DNA of 64,000 bases, from the NCBI RefSeq assembly GCF_988243305.1, contig NZ_OZ547136.1, one strand, 5' to 3'. Shown piece after piece: positions 1,271 to 64,000 of the stretch (its first letter is position 1; every line of letters starts with the position of its first letter). The notes beneath the pieces are model-generated. The model was not told the origin of the DNA, ran no database searches, and saw only the letters and a program-made list of their open reading frames with translations. Made by a program: the position numbers and the translations under genes.

Positions 1271-1360
1271 GTCGTTACCCTTTTTCAGGCAATAGTTGGC
1301 CCTGACCGAAGCGGCCAATTTTGTTTTTGTCGTTATTTACACCGCGGTTTCGCATTCATT

Positions 1361-1549
<189 letters not shown>

Positions 1550-1550
1550 T

Positions 1551-2996: not shown

Positions 2997-2998
2997 AA

Positions 2999-5666: not shown

Positions 5667-5668
5667 GC

Positions 5669-9354: not shown

Positions 9355-10546
9355 ACTCCTCCAGCATCTGTTGTCCACTGTAGGCGGCGCGGCTGCATTG
9401 GCTGAACTCAGCCAGCGTGGTGCCAAATATCGCCTTCGCGATTTCCGGTTTGCTTAACTGCACCAGTTGCAGCACGTCTTCTTCGCTGACGGTTTTACCG
9501 CCGGATTTTTGCAGCACTTCACGTGCCGCGTCGCTATGGGTGGCAATCACCGGCACGCCAATCGATAGCGCCTCACACAAAATCAGCGGGTAGTTATCGA
9601 CGCGAGAACTGAATACCAGCGCATCCATCTGATTGAGCGCGCTCATCAACTTGCGCTTGTCAGTTTCAAAGCCGTGATTAACCACGTTGCCAGCGGTGAA
9701 CGGCGAGAACTTACCAAAGGTATGCAGTTCGATTTTGTCGCCCAGCGCCATCATCTCGCGTACCAGTTGCTGGTTAGTTTTGCCGTCGTAACGCAGATCA
9801 TGCGCCACCACCGCGATTTTCGGCTTGCCCTGAGTTTCGCGCACCGGAGGCAGGTCCGCCAGAATCGCTTCGGTTGCCATATCAATGCCATTATTGATAA
9901 TCCGGCAACGCCCTGGACCGTACAGACTATTGAAAGCATCAGCCACATGCTGGCTGGGGGAAATAAACTGACAGCCCAGCGCCAGCATCTCACGGAATAA
10001 CTGGCGTTTGCCCGCCACCAGCTGGTGTGCGCGATCAATCTTCACCGGCGGATAGTTATTTAAGGTCGGGCATTTCTGGCAGCCCTTTTTCCAGCCTTCA
10101 CAACCGTCGGTAAAGGCGCAGCGTCCGGTAACGCTCCAGTGATCGTGTAACGTCCAGACCAAAGTGACATTCGGTTTGTGGTTTTTCACCTTTTCGCAAA
10201 AGCGCACCACGCTCTTAAGATTCAACCAGTAGCTGTGCAGCACATGAAAATGCAGGACCACCGGACCCGGTGTGCGAGTAATGGTGCGATATAACTCATT
10301 GAAATTGCCGAACAGATCGCGATTAAACAGACGAAACAGGGCAATGTTCGCCATCGCGGTCATCCGCGGCGTATGTTTGATGACCTGCGGATAGTTCTGA
10401 TGGCTGACGCTCTCTTTGCCGCCTTTGCCGTAACCGTAGACAAAATGTGACGCCAGCCCCTGTTGCAGCGCACGCTGGTGGAGATCTAACGCCACACCTG
10501 CCGCCCCGCCTTCCGCCAGTCGCACATTAAATTGCAGAATATTCAT
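9329..10546 (-). CDS. wcaC: Colanic acid biosynthesis glycosyltransferase (GT4)
   Basis: 405-aa ORF; cluster position. Confidence 0.9.
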   Translation of the reverse strand: MNILQFNVRLAEGGAAGVALDLHQRALQQGLASHFVYGYGKGGKESVSHQNYPQVIKHTPRMTAMANIALFRLFNRDLFGNFNELYRTITRTPGPVVLHFHVLHSYWLNLKSVVRFCEKVKNHKPNVTLVWTLHDHWSVTGRCAFTDGCEGWKKGCQKCPTLNNYPPVKIDRAHQLVAGKRQLFREMLALGCQFISPSQHVADAFNSLYGPGRCRIINNGIDMATEAILADLPPVRETQGKPKIAVVAHDLRYDGKTNQQLVREMMALGDKIELHTFGKFSPFTAGNVVNHGFETDKRKLMSALNQMDALVFSSRVDNYPLILCEALSIGVPVIATHSDAAREVLQKSGGKTVSEEDVLQLVQLSKPEIAKAIFGTTLAEFSQCSRAAYSGQQMLEEYVNFYQNL

Positions 10547-20106: not shown

Positions 20107-20127
20107 GGTATCCTCAATGGGCCTGAA

Positions 20128-20709
20128 TTAGTCTTTATCGATTCGGCTGGCTACCGCGCCCTGCTGGTTGCGATATTTCGCATCTTCACGGCGGTTGTAA
20201 GGTCGCGCCGCCGGGCCGGAAAGCGGCTCAAAGCTCAGCGCACCAATTAACATGCCCGGACGCAGCGCCAGCGGCAGCTTACCGGAGTTGTAGAACTCCA
20301 GCACAATACAGCCAGACCAGCCCGGATCGATACGGTGCGCGGTGACGTGCACCATAAGCCCCAGACGCGCCAGTGAGGAACGACCGTCCAGCCATCCCAC
20401 CAGATCGGCTGGCAGCGTCACCGACTCCAGCGTCACCGCCAGCGCCAGCTCTCCTGGGTGAAGATAAAACGCCTCGCTTTCATCGAGTACGATCTCATCG
20501 CTCATCACGCGGTCAAGCGCGGCGCTCACTTCATCTTTGGGACCGCTCAGATCGATAAACGCTGCCGTGTGACCACGGAAGGTACGAAATTTATTGCCCA
20601 GGCGCACATCCACCGTCGCGCCATTAATACGCTCCACTGGCGGACGTGGGTTGATCGACAAACGGCCTTCATCAAGCCAGGCTTCAATATCTCGGTCACA
20701 CAGACGCAT
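20128..20709 (-). CDS. dcd: dCTP deaminase
   Basis: 193-aa [26 protein letters not shown]... Confidence 0.95.
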
Positions 20710-20800
20710 GGCATTTTCTCCTTTCGTGCATCACTCCCTTAACGCCAATTACGTCAAGGGCATACCAGGTTATCACTGAACGGTACACAATTTATCAAGC

Positions 20801-21442
20801 TTATTCAAAGAACTGACTTATTTTCGCTTTCAATATATCGATGGCGATGCGGTTTTTCCCGCCGCGCGGCACGATAATGTCCGCATATTGTTTAGAAGGC
20901 TCAATGAATTGCAGGAACATCGGACGCACGGTTTTTTGATATTGCGCCATCACTGAATCCATTGAACGCCCACGCTCGTTAACGTCACGCTTGATGCGGC
21001 GCATCAGGCAGATATCCAGCGGGGTATCAACGAAAATTGAGAAGTTAAGTTCATCACGCAAACGCGCATCCGTTAGCAGCAAAATGCCTTCGAGAATGAT
21101 GACTTTCTTCGGCTCAACCGTCACCGTTTCTTTCATACGCGTATGTTCAACATAGCTGTAAACCGGCAGGTCAATTGCCGAGCCGCGTTTCAACGCTTGT
21201 AAATGCTCAAGCAGCAGGCTGTGATCCATCGCGCTGGGATGGTCGTAGTTGGTCTTAACGCGTTCTTCCATCGACAGATGGCTTTGATCTTTGTAATAGC
21301 AGTCTTCGGGAATTACGCCGATGTGTTCATCACCGACTTGCTCACGTAATTCACGATAAAGGGTACTGGCAATAAGACTCTTGCCGGAAGCCGATGCGCC
21401 AGCGATACCGATAATGACGCACTGATGAGACTGATCAGTCAT
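20801..21442 (-). CDS. udk: Uridine/cytidine kinase
   Basis: Track ORF is 234 aa; trimmed to [22 protein letters not shown]... (213 aa) with Walker A GASASGKS. Confidence 0.92.
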
Positions 21443-21759
21443 ATATTTAGCGACCTGATTAACCTGGATGTTAGGAAGGGGGCGACGAAGCGCCAAACGC
21501 GGCAATTATAGGGATTTCATCCGCCTGATACCAGTCGAATAGCGTTGCCGCGCGCTCAGAGTTAATTGTTGACAAAGAATTCCCGGTGGCAAATTACGTT
21601 GATCAGTTTTATACAAGGTAAAAAATGTTATACGCCGTTGCGCAAATTATCCGCCTTTACGTCACTTTATGAGCAATTCGCATATAAAATGTAAAACTTT
21701 TGTACTAGCATAAACACAGAAACGAATACTGGCGACCTGGTCTTGCGGATAAAGCGGTA

Positions 21760-24700
21760 ATGAGCAAACAATCACAGCATGTATTAATTGCCCTGCCCCA
21801 CCCGCTGCTTCACCTGGTCAGTTTAGGTTTAGTCTCGTTTATCTTTACCCTTTTCTCGCTTGAGCTTTCGCAGTTTGGCACCCAACTCGCCCCACTGTGG
21901 TTCCCGACGTCCATCATGATGGTGGCGTTTTATCGCCATGCCGGGCGTATGTGGCCGGGGATTGCGCTGAGCTGCTCACTGGGAAATATCGCCGCATCCA
22001 TCCTGCTTTTTTCCACCAGCTCGCTGAACATGACCTGGACGACCATCAATATTGTTGAAGCCGTGGTCGGGGCAGTGCTACTGCGTAAATTGCTGCCGTG
22101 GTATAACCCATTGCAAAATCTGGCTGACTGGCTGCGTCTGGCACTCGGCAGCGCCATTGTTCCGCCTCTGTTGGGGGGTGTTCTGGTTATCCTGCTGACG
22201 CCCGGAGACGATCCTCTCAGGGCATTTTTGATATGGGTACTGTCAGAATCCATCGGCGCACTGGCACTGGTGCCACTGGGATTGTTATTTAAACCACACT
22301 ATCTGCTGCGCCATCGCAACCCAAGGTTGCTTTTTGAGTCGCTGCTCACGTTAGCCATCACACTGACGTTAAGCTGGCTTTCGATGCTGTATCTGCCGTG
22401 GCCTTTTACTTTCATTATTGTGCTGTTGATGTGGAGCGCCGTGCGCCTGCCACGAATGGAAGCCTTTTTGATCTTCCTTACCACGGTGATGATGGTGTCA
22501 CTGATGATGGCCGCGGATCCCTCCCTGCTTGCTACGCCGCGTACATACCTGATGAGCCATATGCCGTGGCTACCGTTTTTGCTGATCCTGCTGCCCGCCA
22601 ACATCATGACCATGGTGATGTATGCCTTTCGTGCGGAACGCAAACACATTTCCGAAAGCGAAACCCGCTTTCGGAACGCGATGGAATATTCCGCTATCGG
22701 TATGGCGTTAGTGGGCACCGAGGGACAATGGCTGCAATCCAACAAAGCACTCTGCCAGTTTCTCGGTTACAGTCAGGAAGAGCTGCGCGGACTCACCTTT
22801 CAGCAACTGACCTGGCCGGAGGATCTCAATAAAGATCTGCAACAGGTTGAAAAGCTGATCAGCGGTGAAATAAACACCTATTCAATGGAAAAACGCTACT
22901 ACAACCGCAATGGCGATGTTGTCTGGGCGTTGCTTGCCGTCTCACTGGTGCGCCACACGGATGGCACGCCGCTCTATTTTATCGCTCAGATTGAAGACAT
23001 TAACGAGCTAAAACGCACCGAACAGGTGAATCAGCAACTGATGGAGCGCATCACGCTGGCTAACGAAGCGGGCGGGATTGGCATCTGGGAGTGGGAGCTT
23101 AAGCCGAATATTTTTAGCTGGGATAAGCGGATGTTCGAGCTGTATGAAATTCCTCCGCATATCAAACCGAACTGGCAGGTGTGGTACGAGTGCGTGCTGC
23201 CGGAAGATCGCCAGCATGCCGAAAAAGTGATTCGTGATTCGTTGCAATCACGCTCTCCCTTTAAACTGGAATTTCGCATTACCGTGAAAGACGGCATTCG
23301 CCATATCCGCGCCCTCGCTAACCGGGTACTGAATAAAGAAGGCGAAGTCGAACGCCTGCTCGGCATTAATATGGATATGACCGAGGTAAAACAGCTTAAC
23401 GAGGCATTGTTTCAGGAAAAAGAGCGCCTGCACATTACGCTGGATTCCATCGGCGAAGCCGTGGTCTGTATTGATATGGCAATGAAAATTACCTTTATGA
23501 ATCCGGTGGCGGAGAAGATGAGCGGCTGGACGCAGGAAGAAGCGTTAGGTGTTCCACTCCTGACGGTGTTGCATATTACTTTTGGCGACAACGGACCATT
23601 AATGGAGAACATTTACAGTGCCGACACCTCACGTTCCGCGATTGAACAAGATGTGGTGTTGCACTGCCGAAGCGGCGGCAGCTACGACGTGCATTACAGT
23701 ATTACGCCGTTAAGTACTCTGGACGGCAGCAATATTGGTTCGGTTCTGGTGATTCAGGACGTCACCGAATCGCGCAAAATGCTGCGCCAGCTGAGCTACA
23801 GCGCCTCCCATGATGCACTGACGCATCTCGCCAATCGCGCCAGTTTTGAGAAGCAACTACGCATCCTGCTGCAAACGGTAAACAGTACACATCAGCGACA
23901 TGCACTGGTGTTTATCGATCTTGATCGCTTTAAAGCGGTGAATGACAGCGCCGGGCACGCCGCTGGCGACGCTTTACTGCGCGAACTGGCGTCATTGATG
24001 CTGAGTATGCTGCGCTCCAGCGACGTGCTGGCGCGACTCGGTGGCGATGAATTTGGTCTGCTGCTGCCAGATTGTAATGTCGAAAGTGCGCGTTTTATCG
24101 CTACACGCATTATCAGCGCCGTGAATGACTATCACTTTATCTGGGAAGGACGTGTACATCGGGTAGGTGCCAGTGCCGGGATTACCTTGATTGATGACAA
24201 CAATCATCAGGCGGCTGAAGTGATGTCGCAGGCTGATATCGCCTGTTATGCCTCCAAAAATGGTGGCCGGGGCCGGGTGACGATTTACGAACCGCAGCAA
24301 GCTGCCGCACATAGCGAACGGGCGGCGATGTCGCTTGATGAACAGTGGCGGATGATTAAAGAGAATCAGTTGATGATGATCGCCCACGGTGTCGCTTCGC
24401 CGCGGATCCCGCAAGCGCGTAATTTGTGGCTGATTTCACTTAAGCTCTGGAGTTGCGAAGGCGAGATTATTGATGAACAAACATTTCGTCGTAGCTTCAG
24501 CGATCCGGCACTTAGCCATGCTCTTGACCGACGGGTATTCCACGATTTTTTCCAGCAGGCCGCCAAAGCGGTTGCCAGTAAAGGTATAAGCATCGCCCTC
24601 CCGCTTTCCGTTGCCGGTTTGAGTAGCGCCACGCTGGTGAATGAACTAATTGAGCAGCTGGAAAATAGCCCTCTACCACCACGGTTATTACATCTGATTA

Positions 24701-25077
24701 TTCCGGCAGACGCGATTTTAGATCACGCAGAAAGCGTGCAAAAACTGCGGCTGGCGGGATGTCGGATCGTATTCAGTCAGGTGGGCCGCGATCTGCAAAT
24801 CTTCAACTCGCTGAAAGCGAATATGGCAGATTACCTGCTACTTGATGGTGAGTTATGCGCCAACGTGCAGGGAAATTTGATGGATGAGATGCTGATTACG
24901 ATCATTCAGGGGCACGCTCAGCGGCTCGGGATGAAGACCATCGCCGGGCCAGTAGTTTTACCCCTGGTGATGGATACGCTTTCTGGCATCGGCGTCGATC
25001 TGATTTATGGCGATGTGATTGCCGATGCCCAACCGCTGGATTTGCTGGTGAATAGCAGTTATTTCGCGATTAACTGA
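21760..25077 (+). CDS. dgcE: Diguanylate cyclase: multi-TM sensor, PAS domains, GGDEF domain, degenerate EAL-like C-terminus
   Basis: 1105-aa ORF; polytopic N-terminus; GGDEF motif in RLGGDEFGLLL; no canonical EAL signature seen in the C-terminal domain. Confidence 0.9.
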   Translation: MSKQSQHVLIALPHPLLHLVSLGLVSFIFTLFSLELSQFGTQLAPLWFPTSIMMVAFYRHAGRMWPGIALSCSLGNIAASILLFSTSSLNMTWTTINIVEAVVGAVLLRKLLPWYNPLQNLADWLRLALGSAIVPPLLGGVLVILLTPGDDPLRAFLIWVLSESIGALALVPLGLLFKPHYLLRHRNPRLLFESLLTLAITLTLSWLSMLYLPWPFTFIIVLLMWSAVRLPRMEAFLIFLTTVMMVSLMMAADPSLLATPRTYLMSHMPWLPFLLILLPANIMTMVMYAFRAERKHISESETRFRNAMEYSAIGMALVGTEGQWLQSNKALCQFLGYSQEELRGLTFQQLTWPEDLNKDLQQVEKLISGEINTYSMEKRYYNRNGDVVWALLAVSLVRHTDGTPLYFIAQIEDINELKRTEQVNQQLMERITLANEAGGIGIWEWELKPNIFSWDKRMFELYEIPPHIKPNWQVWYECVLPEDRQHAEKVIRDSLQSRSPFKLEFRITVKDGIRHIRALANRVLNKEGEVERLLGINMDMTEVKQLNEALFQEKERLHITLDSIGEAVVCIDMAMKITFMNPVAEKMSGWTQEEALGVPLLTVLHITFGDNGPLMENIYSADTSRSAIEQDVVLHCRSGGSYDVHYSITPLSTLDGSNIGSVLVIQDVTESRKMLRQLSYSASHDALTHLANRASFEKQLRILLQTVNSTHQRHALVFIDLDRFKAVNDSAGHAAGDALLRELASLMLSMLRSSDVLARLGGDEFGLLLPDCNVESARFIATRIISAVNDYHFIWEGRVHRVGASAGITLIDDNNHQAAEVMSQADIACYASKNGGRGRVTIYEPQQAAAHSERAAMSLDEQWRMIKENQLMMIAHGVASPRIPQARNLWLISLKLWSCEGEIIDEQTFRRSFSDPALSHALDRRVFHDFFQQAAKAVASKGISIALPLSVAGLSSATLVNELIEQLENSPLPPRLLHLIIPADAILDHAESVQKLRLAGCRIVFSQVGRDLQIFNSLKANMADYLLLDGELCANVQGNLMDEMLITIIQGHAQRLGMKTIAGPVVLPLVMDTLSGIGVDLIYGDVIADAQPLDLLVNSSYFAIN

Positions 25078-25091
25078 GGCGTGCTTCCCCA

Positions 25092-25125
25092 TCGCCTGAT
25101 GCGGCGTATCAGGCCTACAATTCGT
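25092..25125. terminator. REP-like palindrome between convergent dgcE and alkA, probable bidirectional terminator
   Basis: cgcctgatgcggcgtatcaggcc hairpin immediately after the dgcE stop; overlaps the alkA 3' end. Confidence 0.5.
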
Positions 25126-25972
25126 CCGTTCCGTCTGGTTGCCAGCCTTCCGTATACCAGATATGCAACAGCGCATAAGAACGCCAGGGCTTCCAGCGTT
25201 CGGCATAACGGCGGATTTGTGCCGGTGTCATTCCCGGAAATCGCTGTTTAATCAGATAATCATCCGGCAGGAAAACATCTTTCGCCTGCCAGCCACGTAA
25301 GGCGAAATAATTCGCCGTCCAGCGCCCGATACCCGGAAAAGTTTGCAGCGTTTTCATCGCTTGCTCTACGTCGCCCGGAAATGTCATTGGTAAGGTGCCC
25401 TCCAGCGCCGCATTTGCCAGATGAATCAGTGCCTCTGCCCGTTTCAACGGCATACCTAACGCTTTTAATGCCTGCGGGTCGGCTGCAGCCAGCCGCTGAG
25501 GCGTGGGGAAGCAGACATAATCCGGAAAATCATCCAGCCGTTCGCCATAAAGCTGTGCCACTCTGGCGGTCAATTTTGCCGCCATCGCCACGCTCACCAG
25601 TTGGCCTAAAATCGCCCGCACGCCCTGCTCAAAAGCATCAACACTGCCGGGTAAACGCAATCCGGGCCGCGCCGCGCCTAACTTGCCCAACGCACCGTTA
25701 ACAATCTGCGGGTTACATTGCAGATCAAACAGGCGGCTCATTTTCGCCAGACACTCTGCGGCAACAGGTTCTAAACCTGCACTTAAATTTATGTGCAGAG
25801 TATGGCGGGCTATATCCGGAATAGCAGTCACCACGCCGCGATATTCGCCCACCGCCAGACTACGGGCATAATAATCGTCAGCGACCGTTTCCACACCGTT
25901 CACCGCACGGGCGGCGAGAAATCCCAACATCCACGACCAGTCATACGGCGGCTGCCAGTTCAGGGTATACAT
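25115..25972 (-). CDS. alkA: 3-methyladenine DNA glycosylase II
   Basis: 285-aa ORF MYTLNWQPPYDWSWMLGFLAARAV...; HhH-GPD fold signature. Confidence 0.95.
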   Translation of the reverse strand: MYTLNWQPPYDWSWMLGFLAARAVNGVETVADDYYARSLAVGEYRGVVTAIPDIARHTLHINLSAGLEPVAAECLAKMSRLFDLQCNPQIVNGALGKLGAARPGLRLPGSVDAFEQGVRAILGQLVSVAMAAKLTARVAQLYGERLDDFPDYVCFPTPQRLAAADPQALKALGMPLKRAEALIHLANAALEGTLPMTFPGDVEQAMKTLQTFPGIGRWTANYFALRGWQAKDVFLPDDYLIKQRFPGMTPAQIRRYAERWKPWRSYALLHIWYTEGWQPDGTDEL

Positions 25973-26020
25973 CGCATCTCCTTGTTAATCCGCTTTCAGC
26001 ATAAACGTTATTCAGACGTT

Positions 26021-26033
26021 ACGCTTTGCTTTC
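26021..26033 (-). promoter_or_regulatory. Candidate Ada box in the alkA promoter region
   Basis: Minus strand reads GAAAGCAAAGCGT about 50 nt upstream of the alkA start, resembling the AAAGCGCA-type Ada recognition element. Confidence 0.35.
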
Positions 26034-26105
26034 ATATTCCGGTTGTCGCGACGGCAACATTTCGCTAAAGTCACGCCCCTTCTTCACCGGCATGGGGATT
26101 ATTTC

Positions 26106-27458
26106 GTGTTTATTGGTTTTGATTACGGTACAGCAAACTGTTCAGTGGCGGTCATGCGCGACGGTAAACCGCATTTGCTAAAAATGGAAAACGACAGCAC
26201 GCTGCTGCCTTCAATGCTTTGCGCGCCAACGCGTGAAGCGGTAAGCGAATGGCTGTACCGCCATCATGATGTTCCGGCAGACGACGATGAAACGCAGGCG
26301 CTGCTGCGTCGGGCGATTCGTTATAACCGCGAAGAAGATATCGATGTTACGGCGAAAAGCGTGCAGTTCGGTCTTTCCTCACTGGCACAGTACATTGATG
26401 ATCCAGAAGAAGTGTGGTTTGTGAAATCACCAAAATCGTTCCTCGGTGCCAGCGGCTTAAAACCGCAGCAGGTAGCGCTGTTTGAGGATCTGGTCTGCGC
26501 AATGATGTTGCACATTCGCCAGCAGGCGCAGGCACAGCTGCCAGAAGCGATTACTCAGGCGGTGATTGGTCGCCCTATCAACTTCCAGGGGCTGGGCGGC
26601 GATGAAGCAAACACCCAGGCGCAGGGGATTCTGGAACGCGCGGCGAAGCGTGCCGGGTTTAAGGATGTGGTATTCCAGTACGAGCCGGTCGCGGCTGGGC
26701 TGGATTACGAAGCCACCTTGCAGGAAGAAAAACGGGTGCTGGTGGTGGATATCGGCGGTGGTACGACTGACTGTTCATTGCTGCTGATGGGGCCGCAGTG
26801 GCGTTCGCGTCTCGATCGTGAAGCCAGCCTGCTGGGTCACAGTGGTTGCCGTATTGGCGGTAACGATCTGGATATCGCACTGGCGTTTAAAAACCTGATG
26901 CCGTTACTGGGCATGGGTGGCGAAACCGAAAAAGGCATCGCCCTGCCGATTCTGCCGTGGTGGAATGCGGTTGCCATCAACGACGTACCTGCGCAAAGTG
27001 ATTTCTACAGTAGTGCCAACGGTCGTCTGCTTAACGATCTGGTACGCGATGCCCGCGAACCGGAAAAAGTGGCCCTGTTACAGAAAGTCTGGCGTCAGCG
27101 TTTAAGCTATCGCCTGGTACGTAGCGCAGAAGAGAGCAAAATTGCGCTTTCAAGCGTAGCGGAAACCCGCGCCTCACTGCCGTTTATCAGCGATGAACTG
27201 GCTACGCTGATTAGCCAGCAAGGGCTGGAAAGCGCCCTCAACCAGCCACTGATGCGGATTCTGGAACAGGTGCAACTGGCGCTGGATAACGCCCAGGAAA
27301 AACCGGATGTCATCTACCTGACCGGCGGTAGCGCCCGTTCGCCGCTGATTAAAAAAGCGCTGGCAGAACAGTTGCCGGGCATTCCGATTGCAGGCGGCGA
27401 TGACTTTGGCTCCGTCACCGCCGGGCTGGCACGCTGGGCGGAGGTGGTGTTTCGTTAA
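26106..27458 (+). CDS. yegD: Hsp70-family (actin-like ATPase) chaperone homologue
   Basis: Track ORF is 471 aa; the conserved N-terminus FIGFDYGTANCSVAV begins at a GTG at 26106 (about 450 aa). Confidence 0.85.
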   Translation: MFIGFDYGTANCSVAVMRDGKPHLLKMENDSTLLPSMLCAPTREAVSEWLYRHHDVPADDDETQALLRRAIRYNREEDIDVTAKSVQFGLSSLAQYIDDPEEVWFVKSPKSFLGASGLKPQQVALFEDLVCAMMLHIRQQAQAQLPEAITQAVIGRPINFQGLGGDEANTQAQGILERAAKRAGFKDVVFQYEPVAAGLDYEATLQEEKRVLVVDIGGGTTDCSLLLMGPQWRSRLDREASLLGHSGCRIGGNDLDIALAFKNLMPLLGMGGETEKGIALPILPWWNAVAINDVPAQSDFYSSANGRLLNDLVRDAREPEKVALLQKVWRQRLSYRLVRSAEESKIALSSVAETRASLPFISDELATLISQQGLESALNQPLMRILEQVQLALDNAQEKPDVIYLTGGSARSPLIKKALAEQLPGIPIAGGDDFGSVTAGLARWAEVVFR

Positions 27459-27470
27459 TTGAAAACTGGC

Positions 27471-29417
27471 TCAGCAACGGCTTAAATCAGCCTGCGCCTG
27501 AGCCAGTTTTTCTGCCGCCTGACGTAACGGTTCCATCAACGGCATGGTCCGTGCTGGAGCATGAAGGCGGAATCGCTGCAACTCTGTCGCACCGACAGTC
27601 AGCGCCGATTCCAGCCGATGTCGTTTGGCGGCCATTTTTGCCATTACCGCTTGTCTGTCTGCAGGCGTTACCGCTTCGTTCGGCCTGAAAACAAAACGGC
27701 GTTCGCAACTCGCTTTCCAGTCGATAACCGCCTGGGTCAGATGATCACCAAAACCTTTTACTTGCTTAACGCTCCGTCGGGTAACGTCTGCCGCCGTTTC
27801 AATACCAAAGGACCGTAACGCCGCTTTACGCGCAGGGCCAACGCCGGGAATAGAGGCAACATCAATAAAAAATCCCTCCAGAAACTTCTGCTTCTGCCGT
27901 TCCCTTGCGGTGTCCTGAAGTGCTGCCAGATCGCGCTTTTCTTCTTCCGGTAACCCAAGAATTTCGTCCTTCATTTTTTCGAGCATCGTCCGTTTGGCGA
28001 TAAAACCTTCCAGCCCGCCCAACCGTTGGATCTGGCTGACTAAATGGTCATAGTCCATTTTCGCGCGATTAAACGCCTCACGGCGTTGCTGGATTTCTGC
28101 TTTGTACGCTTTGCTTGTCAGGCTGCCAATAATCCAGATAGCCGCCAGCACAGGAACCAAAATAATATAACGCGGTTCTGCCTGAAGGCCGCAAAGCAAC
28201 AGCGATAACGCTGACAGTGCGATCTCAATCAGAATGATGTATTCGCGCCGTAACAGGCCTAAAGGAAGCGGCCTGCCAGTCAGTTGGAAATGATCGGGTA
28301 ATGGCAGTTGCAATGCTGGCGGTGCTACTGACGCCATCACCATCGCCCAGACTTTCGCCAGCACAAAATCACCGCTGGTGGTAATGACCTCTTCGCCGAG
28401 ATCAATAAAATAGATAACGCCTTGATTATCCAGCGCACACCACGGGCAGTCAGTCAAATGACCGGGGTAAACATGCATTGCCGAAACGGTACATTTCTTT
28501 AACTGTTGGCGTAGTAAATCAAGTGCCGCAACCCACGCTTTTGCCGTCGGACGCCCGGTTGCCACGCCACTTTCCGTGAATGCCTGCTGAAACATGGTTT
28601 CAACATCGCCCGGTAACATCGACAGCGGAATAGATCGTGGCGGCGGTTTTAAACCACGTCGCTGATTATCTGACGCGTAGGCATAACGGAAATGGGCAAT
28701 ATCCGTCTCCAGTGCATTACCCGCATCAGAGACAAGCGGTACACCGGAATAAGGATGCCGCCCACCAAACAAGACGTGAAAAATCAGCAACGCAAGGCCA
28801 AAATTATCGTGATTCGCGGTGCGTTCAAAGCCGACAAATGATGGCAAGGTTTGCAGCTCTGGCGGCGTAAAATGCGACACGCCGACTTCGCATAAATGCA
28901 GCGTGCCATTGGCGTTAATCTGAAAGGAGTCGCTATCAATCAACACCACTTTGCTGTCACGGCCTACCATAAAGCTGTTCTGGTTTACGTCACCCACGAC
29001 ATGCCCGTGCTCGTGAACCGTAGCAAAAGATGAAGCAATATTGCGCGCAACATAGAGTAGAAAATCCCACGCACAATGAGGGTAACGTTGGCGACGATGT
29101 GCCGGGCTATAGATCATATGAATCGGTTCTTTACCAGAAACTTTTGGCATCATAAAACCGATAACCTTTCCGCCTCGTCCACCGTGAAGCGTTGCCTGCG
29201 GCCAGGCGACATAATTCAACAATTGCGCGTCAGCTGTCGCAGCCATAAAGGCAAGTTTGTCCTGTTTTAAGGCGGGTGGCGGCGTGTGATAAATCTTGGC
29301 GACACTATCGACAAACTCCTCGATATCATAAACCGCGCCTTCGCCACCTTTTCCCAGTTCACGCCCGAGAGTGGTCAATTCACCTGTCGATGTAAATACT
29401 TTTATATTTGTCTTCAT
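27471..29417 (-). CDS. yegI: Hanks-type Ser/Thr protein kinase with two TM helices and a C-terminal helix-hairpin-helix-like motif
   Basis: 648 aa: Gly-rich loop LGKGGEGAVYD, VAKIY lysine motif, catalytic-loop-like HVVGDVNQN, IDSDSF; hydrophobic segments near residues 380-430; GVGPARKAALRSFG near the C-terminus. Confidence 0.88.
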   Translation of the reverse strand: MKTNIKVFTSTGELTTLGRELGKGGEGAVYDIEEFVDSVAKIYHTPPPALKQDKLAFMAATADAQLLNYVAWPQATLHGGRGGKVIGFMMPKVSGKEPIHMIYSPAHRRQRYPHCAWDFLLYVARNIASSFATVHEHGHVVGDVNQNSFMVGRDSKVVLIDSDSFQINANGTLHLCEVGVSHFTPPELQTLPSFVGFERTANHDNFGLALLIFHVLFGGRHPYSGVPLVSDAGNALETDIAHFRYAYASDNQRRGLKPPPRSIPLSMLPGDVETMFQQAFTESGVATGRPTAKAWVAALDLLRQQLKKCTVSAMHVYPGHLTDCPWCALDNQGVIYFIDLGEEVITTSGDFVLAKVWAMVMASVAPPALQLPLPDHFQLTGRPLPLGLLRREYIILIEIALSALSLLLCGLQAEPRYIILVPVLAAIWIIGSLTSKAYKAEIQQRREAFNRAKMDYDHLVSQIQRLGGLEGFIAKRTMLEKMKDEILGLPEEEKRDLAALQDTARERQKQKFLEGFFIDVASIPGVGPARKAALRSFGIETAADVTRRSVKQVKGFGDHLTQAVIDWKASCERRFVFRPNEAVTPADRQAVMAKMAAKRHRLESALTVGATELQRFRLHAPARTMPLMEPLRQAAEKLAQAQADLSRC

Positions 29418-29617
29418 AATGTTTTAAGGGCAGTCATATTATATTTTAATGAATAATAACACTGCCCATTATAATTATTTCCATATTGGAAGAGTCCCAC
29501 TCAAGAATAAAAATGATAATGCAATTTCATCAGGATACAATTCAATTCCAACCTGATAATGATTCACTTCCACAGATTTTTTGCTAACTTTTACTACACA
29601 GGGATTCTGGAAAAAAG

Positions 29618-30079
29618 ATGAAAAAGATATTACTTATGTTGAGTCTGCTATTTTTTACTACCGCGGGCTTTAGTGAAGTTTCGGATACGTTAGTGACGGG
29701 AGGTTATGATAAACAAGCGATGTCTGACGCCATTCAACATGCGCGGAAAGAAACCGATCAATTCATCGAAATTATGAATAAAAAAGATGCCGATACTTTC
29801 GCGGTCAAAGCCCCGATAACCGATCACGGAAGAACAGAGCATTTCTGGCTTACGGATGTCACTTATTCTAACGGCATGTTTATTGGCGTAATAAGCAATG
29901 ACCCTGGTATTGTTACAAACGTAGAATATGGTCAGGAGTGGAAAATCAAGAAAGAAGATATTTCAGACTGGATGTATACGCGCGGGGATAAAATTTACGG
30001 CGGTTATACCATTGATCCTTTATTAGTCACCTATCCAAAAGAAGAAGCCGACGAGCTAAGAGCAAAATTAGTTCGCTAA
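29618..30079 (+). CDS. yegJ: Secreted/periplasmic protein of unknown function
   Basis: 153-aa ORF with N-terminal signal peptide MKKILLMLSLLFFTTAGFS; AT-rich codon usage relative to neighbours. Confidence 0.8.
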   Translation: MKKILLMLSLLFFTTAGFSEVSDTLVTGGYDKQAMSDAIQHARKETDQFIEIMNKKDADTFAVKAPITDHGRTEHFWLTDVTYSNGMFIGVISNDPGIVTNVEYGQEWKIKKEDISDWMYTRGDKIYGGYTIDPLLVTYPKEEADELRAKLVR

Positions 30080-30106
30080 CCAGCCATTATATTGATTGCT
30101 TAAACT

Positions 30107-30134
30107 GGCGGTTGAACTGTTGTCTTCAACCGCC
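30107..30134. terminator. Hairpin between convergent yegJ and yegK
   Basis: ggcggttgaa / 8-nt loop / ttcaaccgcc, a perfect 10-bp stem between the two stop codons. Confidence 0.5.
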
Positions 30135-40224: not shown

Positions 40225-41640
40225 ATGACAGATCTTCCCGACAGCACCCGCTGGCAATTGTGGATTGTGGCTTTCGGCTTCTTTATGCAGTCGCTGGACA
40301 CCACCATCGTTAACACCGCGCTTCCCTCAATGGCGCAAAGTCTCGGGGAAAGTCCGTTGCATATGCACATGGTCATTGTCTCTTATGTACTGACCGTGGC
40401 GGTGATGCTGCCCGCCAGCGGCTGGCTGGCGGACAAAGTCGGCGTGCGCAATATTTTCTTTACCGCCATCGTGCTGTTTACTCTCGGTTCACTGTTTTGC
40501 GCGCTTTCCGGCACGCTGAACGAACTGTTGCTGGCACGCGCGTTACAGGGCGTTGGCGGTGCGATGATGGTGCCGGTCGGCAGGTTGACGGTGATGAAAA
40601 TCGTACCGCGCGAGCAATATATGGCGGCGATGACCTTTGTCACGTTACCCGGTCAGGTCGGGCCGCTGCTCGGTCCGGCGCTCGGCGGCCTGCTGGTGGA
40701 GTACGCCTCCTGGCACTGGATCTTTTTGATCAACATTCCGGTGGGGATTATCGGTGCGATCGCCACACTGATGTTAATGCCGAACTACACCATGCAGACG
40801 CGGCGCTTTGATCTCTTCGGCTTTTTATTGCTGGCGGTTGGCATGGCGGTATTAACCCTGGCGCTGGACGGCAGTAAAGGTACAGGTTTATCGCCGCTGG
40901 CGATTGCTGGCCTGGTCGCAGTTGGCGTGGTAGCACTGGTGCTTTATCTGCTGCACGCCAGAAATAACAACCGCGCTCTTTTCAGTCTGAAACTGTTCCG
41001 TACTCGTACCTTTTCGCTGGGCCTGGCGGGGAGTTTTGCCGGACGTATCGGTAGCGGCATGTTGCCCTTTATGACGCCGGTTTTCCTGCAAATTGGCCTT
41101 GGCTTCTCACCGTTTCATGCCGGACTGATGATGATCCCGATGGTGCTCGGCAGCATGGGGATGAAGCGAATTGTGGTACAGGTGGTGAATCGCTTTGGTT
41201 ATCGTCGGGTACTGGTGGCGACCACGCTGGGTCTGTCGCTGGTCACCCTGTTGTTTATGACTACCGCCCTGCTGGGCTGGTACTACGTTTTGCCGTTCGT
41301 CCTGTTTTTACAAGGGATGGTCAACTCGACGCGTTTCTCCTCCATGAACACCCTGACGCTGAAAGATCTCCCGGACAATCTGGCGAGCAGCGGAAACAGC
41401 CTGCTGTCGATGATTATGCAATTGTCGATGAGTATCGGCGTCACCATCGCCGGGCTGTTGCTGGGACTTTTTGGTTCGCAGCATGTCAGCGTCGACAGCG
41501 GCACCACACAAACCGTCTTTATGTACACCTGGCTTAGCATGGCGTTTATCATTGCCCTTCCGGCGTTCATCTTTGCCAGAGTGCCGAACGATACGCATCA
41601 AAATGTAGCTATTTCGCGGCGAAAAAGGAGCGCGCAATGA
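40225..41640 (+). CDS. mdtD: MFS transporter
   Basis: 471-aa polytopic ORF. Confidence 0.92.
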
Positions 41641-43040
41641 AGTTCTGGCGACCCGGTATTACCGGCAAACTGTTTCTGGCGATTTTCGCCACCTGCATTG
41701 TCTTGCTGATCAGTATGCACTGGGCGGTGCGTATCAGTTTTGAGCGTGGCTTTATTGATTACATCAAACACGGCAATGAACAGCGATTACAGCTGTTAAG
41801 TGATGCGCTTGGCGAGCAGTATGCGCAGCATGGCAACTGGCGCTTCCTGCGCAACAACGATCGCTTTGTCTTTCAGATCCTGCGTTCATTTGAACACGAT
41901 AATTCGGAAGATAAACCCGGCCCGGGTATGCCTCCGCACGGCTGGCGTACTCAGTTCTGGGTGATCGATCAAAACAACAAAGTGCTGGTTGGTCCGCGAG
42001 CGCCGATTCCACCTGACGGTACACGGCGACCCATTCTGGTCAACGGTGCGGAAGTGGGTGCGGTGATTGCCTCCCCTGTTGAGCGACTGACCCGCAATAC
42101 TGATATCAATTTCGATAAACAACAGCGGCAAACCAGCTGGCTGATTGTCGCCCTGGCTACGTTACTCGCGGCACTCGCCACCTTTCTGCTGGCGCGTGGT
42201 CTGTTGGCCCCGGTCAAACGGCTGGTGGACGGCACGCACAAACTGGCGGCGGGCGATTTCACTACCCGCGTGACACCCACCAGTGAAGATGAACTGGGCA
42301 AACTGGCGCAAGACTTCAACCAGCTTGCCAGCACGCTGGAGAAAAACCAGCAAATGCGGCGCGATTTTATGGCCGATATTTCTCACGAACTGCGTACGCC
42401 ATTAGCGGTGCTGCGCGGTGAACTGGAAGCCATTCAGGATGGCGTGCGTAAATTCACGCCGGAGACGGTGGCGTCTTTACAGGCGGAGGTCGGTACACTG
42501 ACCAAACTGGTTGACGATCTCCATCAGTTGTCGATGTCTGATGAAGGCGCTCTCGCCTATCAAAAAGCACCGGTAGATTTGATCCCACTGCTGGAAGTGG
42601 CGGGCGGCGCATTTCGCGAACGATTCGCCAGCCGTGGCCTGAAACTGCAATTTTCCCTGCCAGACAGTATTACCGTATTTGGCGATCGCGACCGTTTAAT
42701 GCAGTTATTCAATAACTTACTGGAAAACAGCCTGCGCTACACTGACAGCGGCGGTAGCCTGAAAATCTCTGCCGAGCAGCACGACAAAACGGTGCGACTG
42801 ACCTTTGCCGACAGCGCGCCGGGCGTCAGTGACGATCAGCTACAAAAATTGTTTGAACGTTTTTATCGCACCGAAGGTTCCCGCAACCGAGCCAGCGGCG
42901 GTTCCGGGCTGGGGCTGGCGATTTGCCTGAACATTGTTGAAGCACATAATGGTCGCATTATTGCTGCCCATTCGCCTTTTGGCGGGGTAAGCATTACAGT
43001 AGAGTTACCGCTGGAACGGGATTTACAGAGAGAAGTATGA
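41637..43040 (+). CDS. baeS: Envelope-stress sensor histidine kinase
   Basis: 467 aa; HAMP domain, H-box SHELRTPL and ATPase G-box GGSGLGLAI; 4-bp overlap with mdtD. Confidence 0.95.
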
Positions 43041-43759
43041 CCGAGTTACCAATCGACGAAAACACACCGCGTATTTTGATCGTGGAAGATGAACCGAAGC
43101 TGGGGCAGTTACTCATTGATTATCTGCGTGCTGCGAGCTATGCGCCAACGTTGATTAGCCACGGCGATCAGGTACTGCCATATGTACGCCAGACACCACC
43201 GGATCTGATTCTGTTGGATCTTATGCTTCCTGGCACCGATGGCCTGACGCTGTGCCGGGAGATTCGTCGTTTTTCTGACATTCCGATCGTGATGGTGACA
43301 GCAAAAATCGAAGAGATCGACCGCCTGCTGGGGCTGGAAATTGGCGCAGATGACTACATCTGCAAACCGTACAGCCCACGGGAAGTGGTAGCGCGCGTCA
43401 AAACCATTTTGCGCCGTTGCAAACCGCAACGCGAACTTCAGCAACAGGATGCCGAAAGCCCGTTGATTATCGACGAAGGTCGTTTTCAGGCTTCATGGCG
43501 CGGTAAAATGCTTGACCTGACGCCTGCGGAATTTCGTCTGTTGAAAACGCTCTCTCATGAACCAGGAAAAGTGTTCTCCCGCGAGCAATTGCTCAATCAT
43601 CTTTATGACGACTACCGCGTAGTAACCGACCGCACCATCGACAGCCACATTAAAAACCTGCGTCGCAAGCTGGAATCTCTCGACGCCGAACAGTCCTTTA
43701 TCCGTGCCGTTTACGGCGTCGGTTACCGCTGGGAAGCCGACGCCTGCCGCATCGTTTAA
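43037..43759 (+). CDS. baeR: OmpR-family response regulator
   Basis: 240 aa; receiver domain with IVEDEP...DLMLPG and winged-helix C-terminus; 4-bp overlap with baeS. Confidence 0.95.
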
Positions 43760-46109: not shown

Positions 46110-46427
46110 TCACTCTCCACATTTGAATGTCAGACGAGCGACGCCATGTAATCCTGCACCTTCTGTCTTCAGGTCAACTATCTGCATTTTTTTGCCCTGA
46201 GTAACACAGAAATGAGCTGCATCATTTTTTACTATATTTTCTGCACCAGATATTCTGCCCCTGGCTAAAGAAGCTTCGGCTTCGGTGTAGTATTGGTTAT
46301 CGAGTTTACGCTGAATATTACTTTTATATGCAAGACCAAATTTACCGATACTTGTCTCATCATTATGTACAGCACACCCAGACATAAGAAAAACACTAAT
46401 TAATGATATAGCAGCTATCTTTTTCAT
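46110..46427 (-). CDS. yegR: Small lipoprotein of unknown function
   Basis: Track ORF is 125 aa; trimmed to MKKIAAISLISVFLMSGCAVHND... (105 aa) with signal peptide and lipobox LMSGC. Confidence 0.85.
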   Translation of the reverse strand: MKKIAAISLISVFLMSGCAVHNDETSIGKFGLAYKSNIQRKLDNQYYTEAEASLARGRISGAENIVKNDAAHFCVTQGKKMQIVDLKTEGAGLHGVARLTFKCGE

Positions 46428-46841
46428 CTTACCTTCCCCCATTAAATACCAACGACACGCTCTGGTGTTAAAATATAATAATGGCATGATTATTATAATT
46501 GAATAGGATTATAATAAATGTTCTGTACAACATTTCCTACATAAGTAGGAATTACAAACATGAAGCCCTGCCCAGGTATCCCCATGAGGGCTTTAATATA
46601 TTTAGAATAAGATAGTGAAGATGCCACTGTTTAGTTGAATATTAGGTATATGCTCTTTTTTGAAATTTACCGGTGGCTACCGTTAACATTCACTGTCCCC
46701 ATTGCAAGCTCCTGGTGGTAACCACTGAATCCTCCATACTTGAACTGACTTTTTATCCTCCGACTTTCATCCTGTTCTGACTCCACCTTTTCTTTTCTGC
46801 TCTACACTATCTACAGACCAATCATAAAGGCACATACGATC

Positions 46842-47822: not shown

Positions 47823-48602
47823 CTACACCGTAATTAATTTCACCCGTGTCTTCTGCAATGCCAGTTTATCCACCTCTGACACGGCATCATCGGTAATAAT
47901 AATGTCGATTTTTTCGATTGGCAGTACCTGATTAAAACCGCGACGATTAAATTTCGATGAATCGAGAACGGCAATCACTTTATTTGCGGCTGTGACCATC
48001 GCCCCGCTAATCGAATAACCTTCATTAAAGGTCGTAATACCATTAACCGCATCAATACCATCAGCACCGACAAACATTAAATCGGCATTAATATCCTGCA
48101 ATGAACGCTCGGCAATGGAACCATGCATCGAGCGTGTTTTATGGCGGACGGTCCCACCACAGACGACCAGAGTAATGTCTTTATTTTCGGAAAGGGCAAA
48201 CGCCGCCGGGAGACTGTTGGTAATCACCGTGATATTTTTGGCGGTCATTAAACCTTCGGCGATAAGCATTGTGGTACTTCCGCTGTCGAGAATAACGGTC
48301 ATCCCTTCGTGGATCATTTTGACTGCCGCCTGCGCTATTCTGTTTTTTGGCGCACTGGCGAGCTGAAATCGCTCTTTAAACCCAACTTCCTGGGTCTCGG
48401 TTTCACTATTACCGGACATTATTTTCGCCGCACCGCCATGAAAGCGCGTAACTACGCCTTTTTGTTCGAGAAAGCGCAAATCGGCACGGATTGTCGCTTC
48501 CGAGGCAGCAAATACTCCCGCCAGATCCTGAACAAGCACGGTTCCCTGTTCATTCACTAATTGGATGATCTTATTCCTTCGCTCGAATGAATTCATCGTC
48601 AT
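47823..48602 (-). CDS. gatR: DeoR-family transcriptional repressor of the galactitol operon (intact)
   Basis: 259-aa uninterrupted ORF; N-terminal HTH and C-terminal DeoR sugar-binding domain; immediately downstream of gatD. Confidence 0.88.
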   Translation of the reverse strand: MTMNSFERRNKIIQLVNEQGTVLVQDLAGVFAASEATIRADLRFLEQKGVVTRFHGGAAKIMSGNSETETQEVGFKERFQLASAPKNRIAQAAVKMIHEGMTVILDSGSTTMLIAEGLMTAKNITVITNSLPAAFALSENKDITLVVCGGTVRHKTRSMHGSIAERSLQDINADLMFVGADGIDAVNGITTFNEGYSISGAMVTAANKVIAVLDSSKFNRRGFNQVLPIEKIDIIITDDAVSEVDKLALQKTRVKLITV

Positions 48603-48701
48603 TTACCCATATTCAATTGTGGCTAGTGTAAACGAAGGGGGACCATTGGTGAATGATCTGTTTTGCACAATACCGGGCCAGCATCACGCTGGCCCGCGGT
48701 T

Positions 48702-49742
48702 TCAGGGAATGAGCAACACTTTGCCCGGCATAGCATTACGAGCGATGTCACGCACCGCCTGGGCGAAGCTTTCAAAGCTTCCACGGTGAGCGATTAATGG
48801 CTCCAGGCTTAACTTACGTTCTGTCAGCAACCGGCTCGCCGTTTCCCACTCCTGCCCCGGCCAAGGGCTGGAGTAGTTCATCCAGCTGCCGATAACCGTC
48901 AGCTCTTTACGCAATATTTTGCCAAACGTTGCCGATGTTAAATGCAGATCCTGATGCAACGTGCCCACCAGCGCCAGCTGGGCATGAGGCCCGGCAATCT
49001 CTACCGCCAGTTCGACGGTTTGCGGGACGCCAGCCGTCTCGAGGATAAGCTGATTAAAGCGCAGTTCGCGTAAAACGCTCTGCATTTGCGGCGCGCTCAT
49101 TTCGCTACTGTTAAATGTTTGCATCGCACCGAAAGATTTTGCCAGTGCCAGTTTTTCTGAGCTAATGTCGATAGCCGTCACACTCTTTGCTCCCAGCGCG
49201 ACAGCGCACTGAATTGCCAGCAGGCCAATGGTTCCGGCACCAATAATAATAACGTTTTTATTCTCACAACCTTGCGCTAAATGAAAAGCATGCAGGCCAA
49301 CGGTAATCGGTTCAATAAAAGCCCCATCCTCAATAGGCATATCCGTGGGTAGAGCAAAGACATTTTTTCGCTTAACGACAATATATTCAGCAAATCCACC
49401 ATCACGCCGCGAGCCAATAAAATCATATTTTGCGCACTGGGAATAAAACCCTTTCAAACACTCTGGACAAGTAAAACAGGGTAATAACGGCACACAGGCA
49501 ACCGCATCGCCAGGGTGTAAATCATCAACACCGGATCCCACCGCATCAATATAGCCGCTAAATTCATGGCCTAACGTTATTGGATAATAATGTGCACCAT
49601 TTTTAAATATCCTGGGTAAATCGGAACCACATAAGCCCGAGCTGGTAATTTTTACCCGTACCTCATCCTGATGTTTAATTTCAGGAATGACGCTTTCTGC
49701 AACGCGCACGATACCATCAGTATCATTCACCACTGATTTCAT
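48702..49742 (-). CDS. gatD: Galactitol-1-phosphate 5-dehydrogenase (Zn-dependent)
   Basis: 346-aa ORF with Zn-ADH motifs GHEFSG and CGSD-type Cys ligands. Confidence 0.95.
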   Translation of the reverse strand: MKSVVNDTDGIVRVAESVIPEIKHQDEVRVKITSSGLCGSDLPRIFKNGAHYYPITLGHEFSGYIDAVGSGVDDLHPGDAVACVPLLPCFTCPECLKGFYSQCAKYDFIGSRRDGGFAEYIVVKRKNVFALPTDMPIEDGAFIEPITVGLHAFHLAQGCENKNVIIIGAGTIGLLAIQCAVALGAKSVTAIDISSEKLALAKSFGAMQTFNSSEMSAPQMQSVLRELRFNQLILETAGVPQTVELAVEIAGPHAQLALVGTLHQDLHLTSATFGKILRKELTVIGSWMNYSSPWPGQEWETASRLLTERKLSLEPLIAHRGSFESFAQAVRDIARNAMPGKVLLIP

Positions 49743-49789
49743 AAAAACTCCTGATTGTTAAGGGGGATTACCTCCCCCTCAGGTAAAAA

Positions 49790-51145
49790 TTATTCTGCGA
49801 GAACGGCTTTCTCTTGTTTAATAAAACCACGCGCTCTACGCCAGGTCATGAAAATACCGGTCAGATAAATTGCGCCGATAATAATGAAACCGGGAATATT
49901 TTGCGGGGAGAAAACCTGAATCAGTAACCAGGTAATGGGAGAACCGCCCTGATCCATTGAAGCCACCATACCCCCGGCTTTTAACGCCCCAGCATTAGCC
50001 GCCAGTTGGGTGTGCAAACCAATAGTTTGCGTCGCGATCCACAGGGTGATGCTCATAATGATGACACCCGAGATTAAGGTGCGGAACAGATTTCCACGAT
50101 GCACGGCAACTGCCATCGCCACAAAGAAGCCGATAGTTGCAAGATCGCCAAACGGCAGCACCTGATTACCCGGCACACAAACAGCAATTAAAATGGTGAG
50201 CGGGATAAAAATCAGGCTTGCCGATACCACCGCCGTATGCCCCAGCAGCAACGCCGGATCAAGGCCAATCAGGAACTCCTGACCGCCGAACTTCGCCTGT
50301 AAACGACTACGGGCCTGCTTAGCGATGGGCGTTAAACCATCCATGATGGGTTTAATCACCCGTGGCATCAGCAGCATCACCGCCGCCGTTTTTACCGCCA
50401 GCTGCAATACACCTTTGACATCGTAACCCGCGAGGATGCCGATAATCAGCCCCATCACAAAACCCACGGTGACAGGCTCGCCAAACGGACCAAATTTGCG
50501 CTGAATATCGTCGGCGCTAAATTTAATACGGTTAACGCCTGGGATTTTCTCGATGATAGCATCCACCAGCACCGCAATTGGCCCCAGATACGCCGACGTA
50601 CCGTGCGGAATAGCAATGCCTTCCAGCTCAAAGAAATTTCGGGTATCGCGGGCAAACCAGTCGCCGAGCTTATAAACAAACGCCGCGTGAATTACCACAC
50701 CCGCCATCCCTATCATCCATGAACCGGTTGCCAGATGCAGCAACGCGCCGGTGAAGGTCATATGCCAGATATTCCAGATATCAACATTTACCACCCGCGT
50801 CATACGGGTCAGTAGCATCGCCACGTTAACCAGAATCGCAATCGGAATCGCCACCAGCGCAATTTGCGACGCCCAGGTCATTGGTGAAGAGCCCGGCCAA
50901 CCGACATCGACCACATGCAGATTCAGGTCGAAATTTTCCGCCATCGCTTTCGCCGCCGGGCCAATGGAATCCAGCATTAAGCCAATCACAAGGCCAATGC
51001 CAACAAAGCCAATCCCGATATGCAGACCTGCTTTAAAGCAATCGCCTGCCTTCATGCCTAATATTTTAGAAAAAATAATGATGACAATCGGTAGCATCAC
51101 CGTAGGGCCGAGGTCGAGAATATAACGCATGACTTCTGAAAACAT
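49790..51145 (-). CDS. gatC: PTS galactitol-specific EIIC permease
   Basis: 451-aa polytopic membrane ORF. Confidence 0.95.
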   Translation of the reverse strand: MFSEVMRYILDLGPTVMLPIVIIIFSKILGMKAGDCFKAGLHIGIGFVGIGLVIGLMLDSIGPAAKAMAENFDLNLHVVDVGWPGSSPMTWASQIALVAIPIAILVNVAMLLTRMTRVVNVDIWNIWHMTFTGALLHLATGSWMIGMAGVVIHAAFVYKLGDWFARDTRNFFELEGIAIPHGTSAYLGPIAVLVDAIIEKIPGVNRIKFSADDIQRKFGPFGEPVTVGFVMGLIIGILAGYDVKGVLQLAVKTAAVMLLMPRVIKPIMDGLTPIAKQARSRLQAKFGGQEFLIGLDPALLLGHTAVVSASLIFIPLTILIAVCVPGNQVLPFGDLATIGFFVAMAVAVHRGNLFRTLISGVIIMSITLWIATQTIGLHTQLAANAGALKAGGMVASMDQGGSPITWLLIQVFSPQNIPGFIIIGAIYLTGIFMTWRRARGFIKQEKAVLAE

Positions 51146-51148
51146 AGG

Positions 51149-51433
51149 TCACCCCTGTAAGATAGTCAGAATTTTATTTTGTAATGCTTCGATACCGACA
51201 CCAGAAACAAAAGGCATGCCGTGAACTAACGGAATATCGCCAAAACTACGGTCAACTTTGGCGGTAGTACATATCAAATGCACGCCATCCATATAGGTTT
51301 CTATTTCATTAACCCGACACTGGATTAATTCAACAGGAATATTATGACTCTGACACAACTCTTTAATTTCTTCCGCCGCCATCGTAGAGGTCGCAACCGC
51401 GCCTCCGCAAGCGACAATAATCTTGCGTTTCAT
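51149..51433 (-). CDS. gatB: PTS galactitol-specific EIIB
   Basis: 94-aa [25 protein letters not shown]... with active-site Cys. Confidence 0.95.
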
Positions 51434-51463
51434 AAATAGTCCTTTTTATTGTTACAGAGGGAT

Positions 51464-51916
51464 TTATTCGTCTGAATCTAAAACATACTTTGTGAAGTAT
51501 TCCTTTAACTGGGTTTCAGGAAGAGTGATTAGTGTCTCGACGATATCGGGCTGTTGTAACTTGCCAAATAAACAGCGTAAAAGTTTCAATTGCTGCTGCG
51601 GATTTTCCACAATCAACGCAATAACCAACGATACCGCCACGTCATTATCATCATCCGCTTGCTGAAAATGAACTTTATTTGTTGGCCTTAACAGATAAAT
51701 GGCTGACGACTTAGCATGAATCGCCTCACAATGCGGTATTGCGATGGCGTGCTGCTCAAGCATTATCCCGGTAGGGAATTCTGCTTCTCTGGCAATTAAT
51801 GCCTGTGGCCAGGTATCATGAACCACACCTTTCGCGAGCATCTCATTACCGATATGGGTTAAAACTTCGCTACGATCGGCAAAAGAAATTCCGCTACGAA
51901 CAAACAGGTTAGTCAT
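51464..51916 (-). CDS. gatA: PTS galactitol-specific EIIA
   Basis: 150-aa ORF. Confidence 0.95.
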   Translation of the reverse strand: MTNLFVRSGISFADRSEVLTHIGNEMLAKGVVHDTWPQALIAREAEFPTGIMLEQHAIAIPHCEAIHAKSSAIYLLRPTNKVHFQQADDDNDVAVSLVIALIVENPQQQLKLLRCLFGKLQQPDIVETLITLPETQLKEYFTKYVLDSDE

Positions 51917-51925
51917 ATACCATCC

Positions 51926-54125
<2,200 letters not shown>

Positions 54126-54301
54126 TTAAATGTCGAGATAACGATCACAAAAACGACAATATGAAAATTGTTCGAGGAGTGAAAGGCAAAAAAAACGGCC
54201 TCCCGATAGGGAAGCCGTAGCAAAGTGCGCGTGTTTTTATGCCGGATGCGACGTAAACGCCTTTTCCGTCATACGTGGTAGTGCTGTTCGTATAAGGCGT
54301 A

Positions 54302-63531: not shown

Positions 63532-63612
63532 CTCAATCCTTTAGGCTTGCATGTTATCTTCAGCCCAGGATGATTCTTAAATCAGCTATTTCCGCTGACT
63601 CTCTGCTCGCTA

Positions 63613-63633
63613 AGGATGCTTTTAGGGCATCCT
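63613..63633 (+). terminator. Hairpin downstream of rcnA
   Basis: aggatgc / ttttaggg / gcatcct followed by a T-rich tract. Confidence 0.4.
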
Positions 63634-63749
63634 TTCATTTACACTTTTTACGAAATCATGGGATCACTAACAAAATATCGCTTGTCAGTTATATTGTATG
63701 GCAGGAAAGATATGCGACTGATATTACAGATCCCCAAAGTGGAGAGTTT

Positions 63750-63965
63750 ATGACCATTAAAAATAAGATGTTGCTGGGTGTGCTTTTGCTGGTTACCAGT
63801 GCCGCCTGGGCCGCACCAGCCACCGCGGGTTCGACCAATACCTCGGGAATTTCTAAGTATGAGTTAAGCAGTTTCATTGCTGACTTTAAGCATTTCAAAC
63901 CAGGCGATACCGTCCCAGAGATGTACCGCATAAGGAGATCCCCTCATAATTTCCCCAAAGCGTAA
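63750..63965 (+). CDS. rcnB: Periplasmic Ni/Co homeostasis protein RcnB, apparently C-terminally truncated and fused to IS10-derived sequence
   Basis: Track ORF is 131 aa; trimmed to MTIKNKMLLGVLLLVTSAAWA... with SD ggagag. Only 71 codons before the stop, and the last ~10 codons (IRRSPHNFPKA) come from the IS10-like end starting at 63935. Confidence 0.6.
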   Translation: MTIKNKMLLGVLLLVTSAAWAAPATAGSTNTSGISKYELSSFIADFKHFKPGDTVPEMYRIRRSPHNFPKA

Positions 63966-64000
63966 CCATGTGTGAATAAATTTTGAGCTAGTAGGGTTGC
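63935..64000 (-). mobile_element. IS10 (Tn10-family) inside-end sequence with the last 18 codons of the transposase; element continues beyond the window
   Basis: Minus strand of 63944-64000 encodes ...ATLLAQNLFTHGYALGKL-stop, followed by ggggatctc, matching my recollection of the IS10 transposase C-terminus and inside end. The expected terminal CTGA is not present at the junction. Confidence 0.5.

Follow-up and report, generated by a model that had tools for sequence, protein, structure and literature searches.

The gatR gene of the window (the whole stretch of 64,000 nucleotides that was analysed) very probably encodes the wild-type, functional repressor of the Escherichia coli gat operon, and galactitol catabolism in this strain would thus be inducible, not constitutive. 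This is a well-founded prediction, because the deduced GatR is identical to the allele of E. coli HS that restored regulation in K-12 (PMC5850726). What "inducible" means in practice may depend on conditions, as a CRISPRi preprint on strains LF82 and CFT073 suggests. With its intact gene the sequence is marked as natural E. coli and not as a laboratory lineage, and galactitol use is predicted to be regulated. The intact gene excludes the K-12 and B lineages and is otherwise little informative. The allele is the ordinary and commonest one, and its biology is already known. Beyond correct annotation the finding has little consequence. The ecological relevance of galactitol regulation is known and has already been published (PMC5850726).

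Reading frame and identity of GatR

In the ORF map of the window, gatR is one continuous ORF of 780 nt on the complementary strand (47823–48602), which comprises 259 codons plus the stop and is far longer than expected by chance. Neither the ORF listing nor an alignment to K-12 gatR revealed an internal stop or frameshift between these positions. The 259-aa product begins MTMNSFERRNK…, and its gene carries two in-frame ATG codons, 6 nt apart, at the 5' end (ATGACGATG); this arrangement is unchanged across four strains. RefSeq/PGAP places the start at the second ATG (position 48596) in every intact genome inspected, and the resulting CDS (47823–48596, complementary strand) encodes 257 aa plus the stop. 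Older and other annotations as well as gene callers use the ATG at 48602, which adds the hexanucleotide ATGACG (48597–48602, complementary strand) and yields the 259-aa form. Both forms are annotated publicly, and the exact 257-aa and 259-aa sequences each occur in at least 1,000 public contigs. The sequence-only reading, which had described gatR as a continuous 259-codon ORF, was thus exact in coordinates and length, and the start alone is refined here.

DeoR-family repressors bind their operators through an N-terminal helix-turn-helix (HTH) domain and are released when a phosphorylated sugar occupies the C-terminal domain. Both parts are present in the product of gatR. The DeoR-type HTH DNA-binding domain (Pfam PF08220) spans residues 8–60 in 259-aa numbering (48423–48581, complementary strand), with an E-value of 1.3e-16 and a score of 60.5 bits (cut-off 21). 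The DeoR C-terminal sensor/oligomerisation domain, which binds the effector (PF00455), covers residues 85–238 (47889–48350, complementary strand) and matches positions 5–159 of the 160 in the profile (E=2.5e-51). The sole relative by sequence in the PDB is the C-terminal domain of DeoR (7l6l, E=1.9e-11).

The NCBIfam collection contains no model specific for GatR, and every equivalog match of the protein stays under its cut-off. The best scores were obtained for AgaR (232.9 against a cut-off of 260) and SrlR (226.3 against 350), and the alignments to these two models span the full length (E=3e-69 and 4e-67, respectively). GatR of the window shares its two-domain architecture with AgaR, SrlR/GutR, GlpR, and DeoR, but with scores below the cut-offs it is a paralogue outside those specific families. 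Because no equivalog model reaches its cut-off, the RefSeq product name of gatR is generic, and because no curated family model fits, the assignment as GatR rests on identity and synteny. Both are clear. The 257-residue protein does not differ in a single amino acid from the GatR that E. coli HS and ECA64 have in common (WP_001295426.1), or from K-12 GatR reconstructed from its fragments, and in HS and K-12 the gene lies at the same position with the same upstream region. The order gatYZABCD, gatR, yegS is that of the annotated K-12, HS, and ECA64 loci. The position between yegS and gatD and the complete match to the rebuilt K-12 protein uphold the earlier naming of the gene as gatR. Hidden frameshift or missense damage was considered as well and is ruled out by the lack of amino acid differences from both the rebuilt K-12 and the HS protein.

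The structural genes under GatR, gatD, gatC, gatB, gatA, gatZ, and gatY (48702–54071, complementary strand), are all full length. Each of the six is as long as its orthologue in HS, shares between 96.8 and 98.9% of its nucleotides with it, and has only one stop codon, at its end. In the MG1655 reference, gatC is annotated as a pseudogene (4922–6279 of the retrieved locus); gatC of the window is full-length with 451 codons, as long as that of HS.

At the nucleotide level gatR differs from the HS gene at 20 sites, all synonymous (pN=0, pS=0.111), which is the tightest constraint among the gat genes. Across eight strains from several phylogroups, including HS, ST131, and O157:H7, GatR carries no more than a single conservative exchange (I196V, E241D, or T202I), and 40 of the 43 variable sites in gatR of these strains fall on third codon positions. 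Judged by this pattern of substitution, gatR is under strong purifying selection.

Loss of gatR in laboratory lineages

In MG1655, gatR (b4498) is an annotated pseudogene joined from pieces of 299 and 475 nt, between which lie the 1258-bp element IS3E (insE5/insF5) and a 3-bp GTC target duplication. This confirms the earlier statement that K-12 gatR is split by IS3. Removal of IS3E and one GTC copy leaves 774 nt that align without gaps to positions 47823–48596 of the window. Twenty of the 774 nucleotides differ (97.4% identity), and all these differences are synonymous. The GTC triplet, which in K-12 is duplicated on either side of IS3E, is unbroken in the window at 48298–48300; the K-12 fragments align up to 48300 and from 48298, respectively. 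A comparison with the K-12 fragments, as suggested in the sequence-only reading, thus found the window continuous across the IS3E site and the gatR::IS3E junction absent. A second lesion occurs in E. coli B/BL21, where gene and locus are as in the window but gatR is interrupted by IS1. In BL21-AI this IS1A insertion, which is independent of IS3E in K-12, lies at 3124–4673 of the retrieved locus; the BL21 gatR fragments flanking IS1A measure 549 and 237 nt. IS1A sits approximately 65 nt upstream, in terms of the gene, of the K-12 IS3E site. The corresponding site in the window (approximately 48360–48371) is continuous as well, and the gatR::IS1 junction is absent, so that the window has neither insertion. 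K-12 and B, both of the major laboratory lineages, have lost gatR through different IS elements.

The frequency of the intact gene was surveyed in 5,426 complete E. coli genomes. The gatR region is present in 5,109 of them, and 4,756 (approximately 88% of the set) carry it as one contiguous match that covers 80% or more of the query. The gatR::IS3E junction exactly as in K-12 was found in 344 genomes, with laboratory K-12 derivatives among those listed, and these 344 account for essentially all loci that are split into two places. The gatR::IS1 junction of the B lineage occurs in 38 genomes, and those listed are B/BL21 derivatives. Intact gatR is the ancestral default of E. coli, and its disruption is peculiar to laboratory lineages.

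The consequences of the disruption are known from published work. The sequence-only reading had noted that the IS3-split gatR renders the gat operon constitutive, which is indeed stated in several papers that attribute constitutive gat expression in K-12 to the IS-disrupted gene. When the K-12 pseudogene was replaced by the gatR sequence of HS, the operon became regulated and galactitol use was unimpaired (Sousa et al. 2017, PMC5850726). Selection in the mouse gut acts against the constitutive K-12 operon, and restoration of gatR alters the evolutionary outcome. In mice, constitutive mutants rapidly re-evolved from the restored strain, and new IS insertions in gatR can cause this phenotype (PMC5850726). 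One sentence of the same paper names the element in MG1655 gatR IS1, contrary to the MG1655 annotation and other papers, according to which it is IS3E. GatR of Salmonella Typhimurium likewise represses gat promoters, and deletion of its HTH abolishes repression (PMC7972205). The gat locus of this other genus is differently organised.

The gatY promoter and the regulation of galactitol use

With both domains and all structural genes in place, regulation would proceed as follows. The N-terminal HTH of GatR would occupy operators at the gatY promoter, so that gatYZABCD stays switched off. The GatABC phosphotransferase system would import galactitol and phosphorylate it, and a sugar-phosphate effector on the C-terminal DeoR sensor domain would release GatR from the DNA. 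Galactitol catabolism in the window strain would thereby be inducible rather than constitutive. The effector is probably a phosphorylated product of the GatABC-dependent uptake of galactitol, and the GatR operators are presumably located at the gatY promoter.

The gatY promoter region (54072–54194, complementary strand) contains a sigma-70-like site upstream of gatY, TCGACA-18-CATTAT (54136–54107). Its −35- and −10-like hexamers are bracketed by an inverted pair, TTGTCGTTT (54151–54159) and AAACGACAG (54081–54089), whose arms are 61 nt apart. Five aligned strains show no variation in the pair. A GatR operator of E. coli was not found in the literature searched. The inverted pair is only a candidate GatR operator pair, because the window shows no enrichment of the TTGTCGTTT motif (23 matches versus 18.9 expected). 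That it also acts as such, and represses through DNA looping as DeoR does, is a rather speculative reading. If it were true, the intact system of the window could serve as a natural template for defining GatR operators.

Compared with HS and K-12, the gatY promoter of the window shows four substitutions and one change in the length of a T-run. One A-to-G exchange lies 6 nt ahead of the start codon of gatY (54072–54077), between this codon and the Shine-Dalgarno motif AGGA, and is unique to the window among five aligned strains. It creates an in-frame GTG, because of which the mechanically called gatY ORF has 286 aa instead of the annotated 284. A further difference of 78 bp upstream of gatY raised the possibility that promoter or operator DNA had been lost. 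This was rejected, as the difference lies outside the gatY promoter and consists of a REP-like insertion in K-12 and HS between fbaB and its terminator (9391–9451 and 29740–29800 of the retrieved K-12 and HS loci, respectively). The insertion is absent from the window (at approximately 54240–54258), ECA64, and GF60.

On the other side of the operon, the gatD-gatR intergenic region (48603–48701, complementary strand) carries a G+C-rich hairpin after the gatD stop (48674–48696) and presumably the ribosome binding site and promoter of gatR. Neither this region nor the 5' end of gatR differs between the window, K-12, HS, and ECA64. An extra regulatory element in the perfectly conserved 181-nt gatD-gatR junction was considered and rejected, because 3 of the 99 intergenic sites vary among eight strains, a proportion similar to the 3.8% at the 3' end of gatD.

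An intact repressor gene could still be without the predicted effect if changes in cis upstream of gatY made the gat operon constitutive or uninducible. The window does differ from HS and K-12 in this region by the substitutions and the T-run indel described above, with the A-to-G exchange before the gatY start among them. However, most of the substitutions in the gatY promoter are common to the natural strains ECA64 and GF60, and the candidate inverted pair and the −35- and −10-like hexamers are conserved. Near-identical loci are frequent in public assemblies, and strong purifying selection on gatR would not be expected for a repressor without a functional target. Constitutive or uninducible expression through such changes is thus very improbable.

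Nor is it at all likely that GatR, although functional, would be so poorly de-repressed under natural conditions that the strain is effectively gat-repressed in the gut. This idea draws on the CRISPRi preprint, in which silencing of gatR was beneficial for LF82 and CFT073, both with intact gatR, in the mouse gut, a result that was read as an apparent failure of de-repression. The rapid appearance of constitutive IS mutants from gatR-restored K-12 in mice (PMC5850726) fits the same picture. The restored HS allele nevertheless permitted regulated use of galactitol (PMC5850726), and poor de-repression would differ from this mechanism in degree, without giving the protein a different identity. A wild-type GatR that renders galactitol catabolism inducible remains by far the best explanation for the locus.

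Strain background and mosaic structure of the region

A non-K-12 background had already been proposed from the sequence. It is borne out by the missing IS3E junction, by the identity of only 96.0–98.2% between the window locus and MG1655, and by the relatives of the baeSR genes (41637–43759), which reach at least 99% identity in four genomes alone, none of them K-12. The baeSR sequences of these four genomes, GF60, STE15, E06, and SC418, match the window at 100% identity. At gat the closest complete genomes are ECA64 and MEW (approximately 99.2%) and not the four baeSR matches. No complete RefSeq E. coli genome exceeded approximately 98.1% identity over 20–25 kb of the window. The draft assembly GCA_054357115.1 is 99.985% identical over 13.3 kb and has an identical gatR. 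The baeSR-gat region is a mosaic, and its differing affinities point to recombination.

Mobile elements distinguish the related loci further. GF60, a natural isolate from chicken meat, has an intact gatR and an IS1 in gatD (23291–25108 of the retrieved locus). This makes GF60 a natural isolate with a gat-negative genotype, which agrees with the polymorphism at gat in gut-evolution experiments. ECA64 and SC418 harbour a P2-like prophage with integrase, cox, ogr, and tail genes between yegQ and yegR (1–6147 and 18417–30123 of the respective retrieved loci). The window has no prophage at this site, where yegQ ends at 45780 and a yegR-like ORF follows at 46110–46487. At the far end of the window, the rcnB ORF (63570–63965) is truncated, and its product diverges after "…EMYR". 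The last 70 bases (63931–64000) match one end of the IS4-family, IS10-like element ISVsa5, which occurs in 786 genomes. The shortened rcnB and the adjoining ISVsa5 end therefore indicate that in the window strain an IS element sits in rcnB and gatR is untouched.
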